This document shows positions 39,763 through 39,917 of a DNA stretch of 64,000 nt, piece after piece. Both the position numbers and the translations under genes were made by a program. Source of the stretch: an uncultured Candidatus Saccharibacteria bacterium (GTDB lineage: Bacteria > Patescibacteriota > Minisyncoccia > Phycocordibacterales > UBA918); contig CAYOAM010000002.1 of NCBI GenBank assembly GCA_964402035.1, positions 27,280 through 91,279 of the forward strand, given 5' to 3'. The notes beneath the pieces are model-generated. The model did not search any database, had not been told where the DNA came from, and saw only the letters and a program-made list of their open reading frames with translations. Within the stretch, counting starts at the first letter, position 1; each line of letters opens with the position of its first letter.

Positions 39763-39917
39763 GCGAGCTTGTGTTTTTGAAAGACCTTGCGCAGTCACGC
39801 GCAGCACGGTGCCTGCCGTCCTTTGTTGCGGAAGCGACTACGGCAGGAACGCGCGACGAGCAGAACACAGCACCCTGCTGGGGTGCTGATGAGTGTCTTT
39901 CAAAAACACAAGCTCGC
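39763..39917. repeat. Structured intergenic element, copy B: 23-bp perfect outer helix GCGAGCTTGTGTTTTTGAAAGAC/GTCTTTCAAAAACACAAGCTCGC enclosing core 39794-39862 and a 3' hairpin CAGCACCC-TGCT-GGGTGCTG
   Basis: Core about 90% identical to 21474-21541; peripheral helices differ in sequence but keep pairing. Confidence 0.7.

Follow-up and report, generated by a model that had tools for sequence, protein, structure and literature searches.

A dispersed family of hairpin-enclosed elements with a conserved three-way junction, mostly beside stop codons, in Kaiserbacteria-like Patescibacteria

Several known genetic elements share features with those described here. REP repeats affect mRNA stability or termination. 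Elements derived from IS200/IS605, as well as attC sites, depend for their function on folded hairpins and not on sequence, and have a strong orientation bias relative to replication; in integrons the attC site immediately follows the cassette gene's stop codon. A perfect helix of two turns is the type of duplex that RNase III cuts, and in E. coli the enzyme regulates its own expression through a long duplex in the rnc 5' leader, which is cut by RNase III itself. Candidate Phyla Radiation (CPR) bacteria have tiny genomes with very little non-coding DNA.

Among palindromic extragenic repeats, REP/BIME and ERIC of enterobacteria and SPRITE of pneumococcus are concentrated at the 3' ends of genes inside transcription units, and ERIC and SPRITE affect mRNA stability or termination (PMC10969869). 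The Correia elements of Neisseria (CREE) are co-transcribed with their neighbours, and the folded RNA is bound by RNase III and cut at the inverted repeats within the mRNAs (PMC2649163, PMC10969869). For CPR bacteria we found no description of structured non-coding elements in the literature, and a search for structured RNAs or repeats of CPR/Patescibacteria returned nothing relevant.

The window, by which we mean the whole 64-kb stretch of DNA analysed, contains a structured element of 155 nt (39763-39917), copy B, immediately 3' of the RNase III gene rnc. The parts of element B and its neighbours are as follows.

39183-39701, plus strand: Nudix gene, convergent
39711-39741 (hairpin 39711-39732), plus strand: intrinsic-terminator-like hairpin of the Nudix gene with a T-run, separate from element B
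39763-39785, plus strand: 5' arm of the outer helix P1, GCGAGCTTGTGTTTTTGAAAGAC, 23 nt; specific to this locus over the outer ~17 nt, with an inner GAAAGAC that copy A shares
39786-39793, plus strand: J1/2 linker CUUGCGCA (family consensus YYUGCA)
39794-39801, plus strand: 5' strand of P2, GTCACGCG, whose partner is 39850-39857, with one A-C mismatch
39802-39811, plus strand: conserved one-sided bulge CAGCACGGUG (family motif RGCAYGGU)
39812-39847, plus strand: P3 hairpin, CCTGCCGT / ACGGCAGG, enclosing a small GTTGC-GGAA-GCGAC hairpin
39850-39857, plus strand: 3' strand of P2
39858-39867, plus strand: purine-rich J2/4 linker GAGCAGAACA (CGAARCCGMAAG in other genomes)
39868-39888, plus strand: P4 hairpin CAGCACCC-UGCUG-GGGUGCUG, 8 bp, with the conserved GCNG loop
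39889-39894, plus strand: J4/1 linker AUGAGU
39895-39917, plus strand: 3' arm of P1, GTCTTTCAAAAACACAAGCTCGC
39923-40615, minus strand: rnc (RNase III, 230 aa; Pfam Ribonuclease_3 and dsrm), stop codon 39923-39925

The two arms of P1 are 100% complementary over 23 nt and enclose 109 nt. The perfect outer helix of 23 bp named in the original prediction is thus real, and none of 100 dinucleotide shuffles yielded any matching arms. Against such shuffles the 171-nt region folds with z = -7.7 on the plus strand and -8.9 on the minus strand. Inside P1 there is a three-way junction; its long arm runs from P2 into P3 and carries the one-sided bulge, and its other arm is the 8-bp hairpin P4. A chance origin of this structure is excluded, and element B is a genuine selected structure. 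The separate terminator-like hairpin that had been placed after the Nudix gene is also there, complete with its T-run. The distance from the helix to the rnc stop codon, first given as 6 nt, has to be corrected: since the helix ends at 39917 and the stop codon occupies 39923-39925, the gap is 5 nt (39918-39922). We note in passing that the gene upstream of rnc (40655-41605, minus strand) encodes a NusB-Nudix fusion (Pfam NusB and NUDIX) and is retained in all relatives examined; the separate Nudix gene is across element B, on its other side.

A second copy lies in the window next to the gene of a sigma factor.

21443-21595, plus strand: copy A, 10 nt from the rpoD stop codon, oriented as B
21606-22880, minus strand: rpoD

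Copy A is directly 3' of a plus-strand terminator. The structure that A and B were originally said to have in common holds up well: their cores are ~86% identical, and pairing is kept in both although P4 throughout, and P1 over its outer ~17 bp, differ in sequence. A and B also have in common a P3 sequence and junction variants (GAGAC, CGAGCA) that are absent from other genomes. The comparison of the two sequences points to possible copying of the core, or gene conversion, between A and B inside the window genome.

Relatives were sampled as pieces of at most 20 kb, taken from the rnc and rpoD neighbourhoods, and the own genome as ~64 kb. A covariance model built from four copies finds nine copies, scoring 71-144 bits, in four genomes of Kaiserbacteria-like Patescibacteria: the window and the relatives L030, L167 and L176. 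Besides A and B these are the following.

L030, 17715-17854; 2319-2460; 18371-18506: three family-1 copies
L167, 7459-7596; 10708-10839; 3979-4114: three family-1 copies
L176, 4850-4983: one family-1 copy

The model has no match in the pieces from L025, L028, L168, L169, L170, L175 and L177, none at E<0.1 in ~760 kb of unrelated metagenome DNA, and a single weak one (15 bits, E=0.38) in ~124 kb of viral DNA. All copies, 125-155 nt long, have a closing helix of 20-24 bp with a locus-specific sequence around a conserved three-way junction, whose constant parts are the RGCAYGGU bulge, the purine-rich linker and the GCNG loop. The family consensus can be written as ..GAGCA, YYUGCA, P2, RGCAYGGUCUUU-P3-AAAG, P2', CGAARCCGMAAG, P4 (GCNG loop), YGG-UC... 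The inner 5-7 bp of P1 are shared (GAGCA/UGGUC; GAGAC/GUCUC in the window) and the outer 16-20 bp differ in each copy. Bases are conserved in junctions and loops, and the stems turn over in sequence; P3 is freely variable in length and sequence, with another of each in every one of the other genomes.

In the nine-sequence alignment 34 of the 36 modelled pairs have changes at both sides. Standard pairs fill 94.1% of the cells; in controls with partners slid by 1-3 columns the figure falls to 35-48%. Fitting the alignment to the model favours the structure, but these controls and the raw sequences leave no doubt. None of 500 shuffles came up to the values observed. These hairpin-enclosed elements form a dispersed family in Kaiserbacteria-like Patescibacteria, and element B is one of its members.

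The family has no counterpart in the collections that we searched. Rfam gives no match in the whole window at gathering thresholds, and E-value scans with Rfam 15 of B, A and two L030 copies give only weak chance matches (E >= 0.01). There is no blastn match of B to phages and plasmids, and two pattern scans of viral contigs yielded only chance or coding matches. The pattern GGTGCCTGCCGTN{8,30}ACGGCAGGA, run on a collection of genome contigs exclusive of the window's own genome, hit 18 loci, all by chance. The pattern GCATGGTN{40,70}AGCACCCN{4,5}GGGTGCT has at least 120 matches in metagenome contigs; none of those listed fits the covariance model, and many of them are one recurrent sequence of human gut contigs.

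Some simple identifications were tried and rejected. A hammerhead is suggested by CUGAUGAG and GAAAG in B, but A has UUGAUACG and there is no Rfam ribozyme match. A small ORF starting at the AUG of GCAUGG would find ACG there in B, and the stems keep no reading frame. Rfam gives no match to 6S RNA, Y RNA-like RNAs or ribozymes, nor to HEARO and other transposon-associated RNAs. A MITE would have terminal repeats of the same sequence in all copies, which is not the case, and none of the nine copies has a flanking direct repeat at the helix or core boundary; no transposase domain appears in the Pfam listings of the neighbourhoods read (64 kb and the 20-kb pieces). REP/REPIN is excluded by arms that are not conserved and have no common head sequence, with no RAYT gene in the regions read, and attC by arm ends without RYYYAAC/GTTRRRY motifs and by neighbours that are single-copy housekeeping genes. 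The flanking repeats of a retron are present, but there is no reverse-transcriptase domain nearby, and three copies in 20 kb are unlike retrons.

Seven of the nine family-1 copies lie 3-14 nt from a stop codon: that of rnc in the window and L167, of rpoD in the window and L176, and of rpsP, a KH-domain gene and a gene of 188 aa in L030. The L030 rpsP copy sits between the stop codon and another terminator-like hairpin; because the hairpin is beyond the copy, the copy would be inside the 3' UTR if transcription reaches that hairpin. Copies are found upstream of thrS in L030 and L167, the latter 62 nt after dnaE and 41 nt before thrS, and the L167 copy at 7459-7596 is between the starts of dnaE and rnhB. 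In the original prediction the adjacency to rnc was called notable. It is one instance of a general habit of lying 3' of genes, though it recurs in L167, and the element is not specific to rnc, because the family also occurs at rpoD, rpsP, the KH gene, thrS and dnaE/rnhB. The expectation that the same locus would be occupied in relatives is borne out in part. L167 has a family-1 copy 5 nt after rnc, oriented as in the window (its rnc product is 69% identical in amino acids by global alignment), and L172-174 have a remnant there; no such element is present at the rnc-3' site of L025, L028, L169 and L170. At this site L030 has a different hairpin-enclosed element and L168 a plain hairpin of 22 bp.

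The different element belongs to a second family, with three homologous members.

Window, 16177-16300, plus strand: family-2 element with a 19-bp outer helix and a purine-rich 86-nt core that includes a hairpin of the form CGUA-loop-UACG; a minus-strand gene (16298-17203) has its stop codon overlapped by the 3' arm
L030, 10693-10821: family-2 element with a 23-bp helix over the rnc stop codon
L177, 11303-11430: family-2 element with a 19-bp helix made of the last codons of rpoD and its stop codon

Each of the three overlaps a stop codon or lies no more than 14 nt from one. The purine-rich cores form a related set, with only a faint relation to family 1. With family 1 after rnc in the window and L167 and family 2 there in L030, and with family 1 after rpoD in the window and L176 and family 2 there in L177, it follows that the same spacers can host family 1, family 2 or a plain perfect hairpin of 17-22 bp.

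Such plain palindromes, perfect over 17-22 bp with loops of 0-5 nt (some are loopless), stand right after many genes, and the terminator-like hairpins of this lineage stand out by their length and their perfect pairing. Examples are the following.

Window, 48615-48656; 43242-43284; 42070-42108; 11234-11294: plain palindromes
L168, 10719-10765: plain palindrome
L030, 205-247; 13962-13999: plain palindromes

Other structured sequences were observed in these regions. Between the starts of rnhB (minus strand) and dnaE (plus strand) the window has 181 nt (43140-43320) with a 22-bp outer helix (three mismatches) and two long near-perfect hairpins inside; this folds at -95 kcal/mol on the plus strand and -77 on the minus strand, and the equivalent spacer of L167 contains a family-1 copy. 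A conserved hairpin, ..CGTCCGAGTAAAAA..TTTTTACTCGGACG.., is found at or just upstream of the thrS start (window 46720-46772, L030 2049-2103, L025 2482-2525) and may be a thrS leader or operator. In L028 a direct repeat of ~60 nt, AAATTTTTTAGTTTTCGAAATAGAAAGAGCCCCACAGTCGCAC..GGTGCGAAAGGGGG (~10145-10205 and ~10830-10895), surrounds a minus-strand gene of 135 aa downstream of rnc and is unrelated to the element. A small repeated hairpin with a T-arm-like look (CTACTTGGGAGTTCGACTCCTAAGT, CTACTTGGGAGTCAGACTCGCAAGT) occurs in the window at 12647-12671, a few nt past an ORF ending at 12642, and at 15958-15982; ARAGORN finds no tRNA in the 64-kb window.

How old are these elements? Four-fold sites are 27-42% identical between the window and L176, 26% between L030 and L167, and 42% between the window and L167. 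Because these values are near saturation, occupation of the same locus (rpoD-3', rnc-3', thrS-5') must be old or repeated. The copies upstream of thrS in L030 and L167 have 14 of 23 arm bases in common, and common descent is therefore favoured. L172-174 are closer to L167, with an rnc product 95% identical in amino acids and four-fold sites 52-57% identical. Their rnc-SMC spacer (L172 2250-2380; also L173 and L174) holds a rearranged element. A block of 25 nt, TGCTGTGCGGCTGCAGATGCTCGCA, covering the inner part of P1, J1/2 and a P2 strand, is identical to L167; the other half is replaced, and there is a new outer helix, CTGAAAAACA../..TGTTTTTTCAG. Part of the element is therefore constrained and the helix has been rebuilt. 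As a search for an empty site that would reveal mobility, L172, the closest relative of L167, thus gave a rearranged element and not a clean empty site. Taken together, the sequences suggest that the family is long-lived at given loci and that cores are probably homogenised or copied between loci within a genome.

The next question is whether the element acts as RNA or as DNA, and on which strand. The purine-rich strand, which carries GCAUGG, coincides with the strand of negative GC skew in 12 of 12 elements (nine of family 1, three of family 2), both window-wide and per locus, although the 12 represent only about seven distinct loci in one syntenic region and GC skew here may partly reflect gene orientation. 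The orientation is constant also beside genes of the opposite strand, as with the copies upstream of thrS, where dnaE and thrS are on the other strand. The GCAUGG strand, G- and purine-rich against the local skew, folds better as RNA by 3.5-11 kcal/mol in eight of the nine copies. In most copies it leads into the neighbouring gene in antisense; the transcripts of rnc, rpoD, rpsP and the KH gene would contain the complementary strand. Helix cells are 91% Watson-Crick, and G-U pairs (9) are not above A-C mismatches (6), so that the helices lack the asymmetry by which the strand of an RNA helix can usually be told. A U-tract after P1 is absent on either strand in B and A, and U-rich tails follow three of seven gene-sense copies. 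These facts on orientation, folding and pairing pull different ways, on RNA versus DNA as well as on the strand.

The best explanation that we can offer, tentatively and at rather less than even chances, is a cis-acting 3'-end module similar to REP, ERIC and Correia elements, which would be a substrate of RNase III if transcribed and is not specific to rnc. On this view the rnc mRNA, read from the minus strand, would carry element B as its tail, and the rpoD mRNA would likewise carry copy A. The tail is predicted to fold very stably, and so could block 3' exonucleases or act in a terminator-like manner. RNase III may cut the 23-bp perfect helix, as it does Correia elements (PMC2649163, PMC10969869), and expose the mRNA to decay. 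If so, the abundance of RNase III would tune every mRNA with such a tail, its own included. Cores might be homogenised or copied between loci, as with REP, ERIC and Correia-type repeats. The P1 duplex, 23 bp and perfect in B and 20-24 bp elsewhere, has the length of an RNase III substrate, about two turns (20 bp or more) of uninterrupted duplex. Several observations count against such a module: the lack of a U-tract in B and A, the better folding of the GCAUGG strand, the lack of a G-U excess, an orientation that tracks the chromosome and not the neighbouring gene, and the L167 copy between two gene starts. In addition, a simple 3'-end hairpin needs no conserved three-way junction.

It is possible, though doubtful, that we are dealing with a new, Patescibacteria-specific class of element in which the junction, inside a two-turn helix of free sequence, would be the functional unit. 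It could be an RNA released by RNase III that has its own biochemical activity or protein partner, or a single-stranded DNA element that builds its outer helix by copying the flank and whose uniform orientation would come from a role or a way of moving linked to the replication fork.

An alternative, which we consider unlikely, is that the sequence works at the level of DNA, as a hairpin- or cruciform-forming sequence tied to replication. It might be a small non-autonomous mobile element that moves as single-stranded DNA or invades palindromic terminator sites; it might also be a strand-specific site, for instance of priming or recombination. Intra-strand template switching, a process established for the perfecting of quasi-palindromes (PMC7202029), would make the outer helix perfect or keep it so. 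The strength of this proposal is that it best accounts for the uniform orientation, for near-perfect pairing and for arms derived from coding sequence; G-U pairs are about as frequent as A-C mismatches, which would be expected if neither RNA strand is favoured. A family-2 arm consists of the gene's own last codons and stop codon, which means that the opposite arm must be the one that was fitted to it. Two unrelated cores have one outer-helix design at the same sites (rnc-3', rpoD-3'), and the plain perfect palindromes of 17-22 bp after genes are possible targets or products. On the other hand, Pfam-annotated neighbourhoods contain no transposase, HUH nuclease, reverse transcriptase or integrase. 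Neither boundary shows a target-site duplication or conserved target bases; by the measures used for IS200/IS605-type elements the orientation bias is 12/12, but the bases beside the core differ (GCAT, CTAT, TTGG, TTAG, TTTG and others). The copies at the same locus are old and not recent. P2 and P4 covary in every copy, and folding therefore matters at each locus. The orientation itself has to be read with the small number of loci and the possible influence of gene orientation on skew in mind.

Less likely still is a free-standing or processed structured non-coding RNA, made from the GCAUGG strand (the plus strand of the window), for which the helix would be a processing stem trimmed by RNase III. 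The conserved three-way junction would then serve to bind a protein or ligand, or for catalysis. Conserved bases in junctions and loops combined with covarying stems are the signature of an RNA with tertiary structure, and of all the readings this one best accounts for the conserved junction. It also agrees with the better folding of a strand that is purine-rich against the skew, with a GNRA-type GGAA loop and a U-G pair of B on the plus strand, and with the persistence of the family across genomes with saturated synonymous divergence. However, no sigma-70-like promoter was found, and no copy has a shared motif at a fixed upstream distance. B and A lie just past the terminator of another gene and would run antisense into rnc or rpoD. 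A U-tract terminator is missing in both, G-U pairs are not in significant excess and Rfam gives no match. Three copies in 20 kb (L030, L167) would be a high number for a conventional small RNA.

The weakest reading, because the family is not rnc-specific, is the very improbable one of a dedicated autoregulatory element: by cleaving the helix in the 3' UTR of rnc, RNase III would set its own level, and other copies would be incidental. A helix of at least 19 bp does lie within 10 nt of the rnc stop codon in the window and L167, in L030 as a family-2 element and in L168 as a plain hairpin, and L172 has a composite helix. But the family is also found after rpoD, rpsP and the KH gene and upstream of thrS, such a helix is lacking at rnc in L025, L028, L169 and L170, and no enrichment at rnc can be claimed because long perfect hairpins follow many genes.

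A strongly covarying family placed after core genes (those of a sigma factor, RNase III and ribosomal protein S16) in lineages diverged to saturation suggests a shared 3'-end or strand-specific device. If the cis-acting 3'-end module that we favour is indeed an RNase III-sensitive mRNA tail, it would point to a simple and global form of post-transcriptional control where regulators are few. Should the sequence act as DNA, the family would exemplify a new means by which a repeat generates inverted flanks of its own. In both cases the quality of the alignment suffices to seed a new family model.

Correia elements are alike in being intergenic, ~100-155 bp long and made of a core between long terminal inverted repeats. 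They differ in that every copy has the same inverted repeat of ~26 bp, with a TA target duplication and hundreds of near-identical copies; in the present family the arms differ at each locus, there is no duplication, covariation is seen in the internal stems, and copies that occupy a common locus are old. REP repeats are conserved palindromes of 20-40 nt with a GTAG head and a partner RAYT transposase, and ERIC and SPRITE have stem sequences common to all copies; none of the three has a conserved three-way-junction core inside a variable helix. The ends of IS200/IS605 elements need a fixed target of 4-5 nt and lack terminal inverted repeats. The attC sites have RYYYAAC / GTTRRRY core sites and extrahelical bases and form cassette arrays beside an integrase, all of which are absent here. 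The E. coli rnc stem-loop is in the 5' leader and confined to the rnc operon, without any dispersed repeat. The present family therefore resembles Correia, REP and ERIC elements in its placement and likely effect, and differs from them in having a locus-specific helix around a covarying junction and a uniform orientation.
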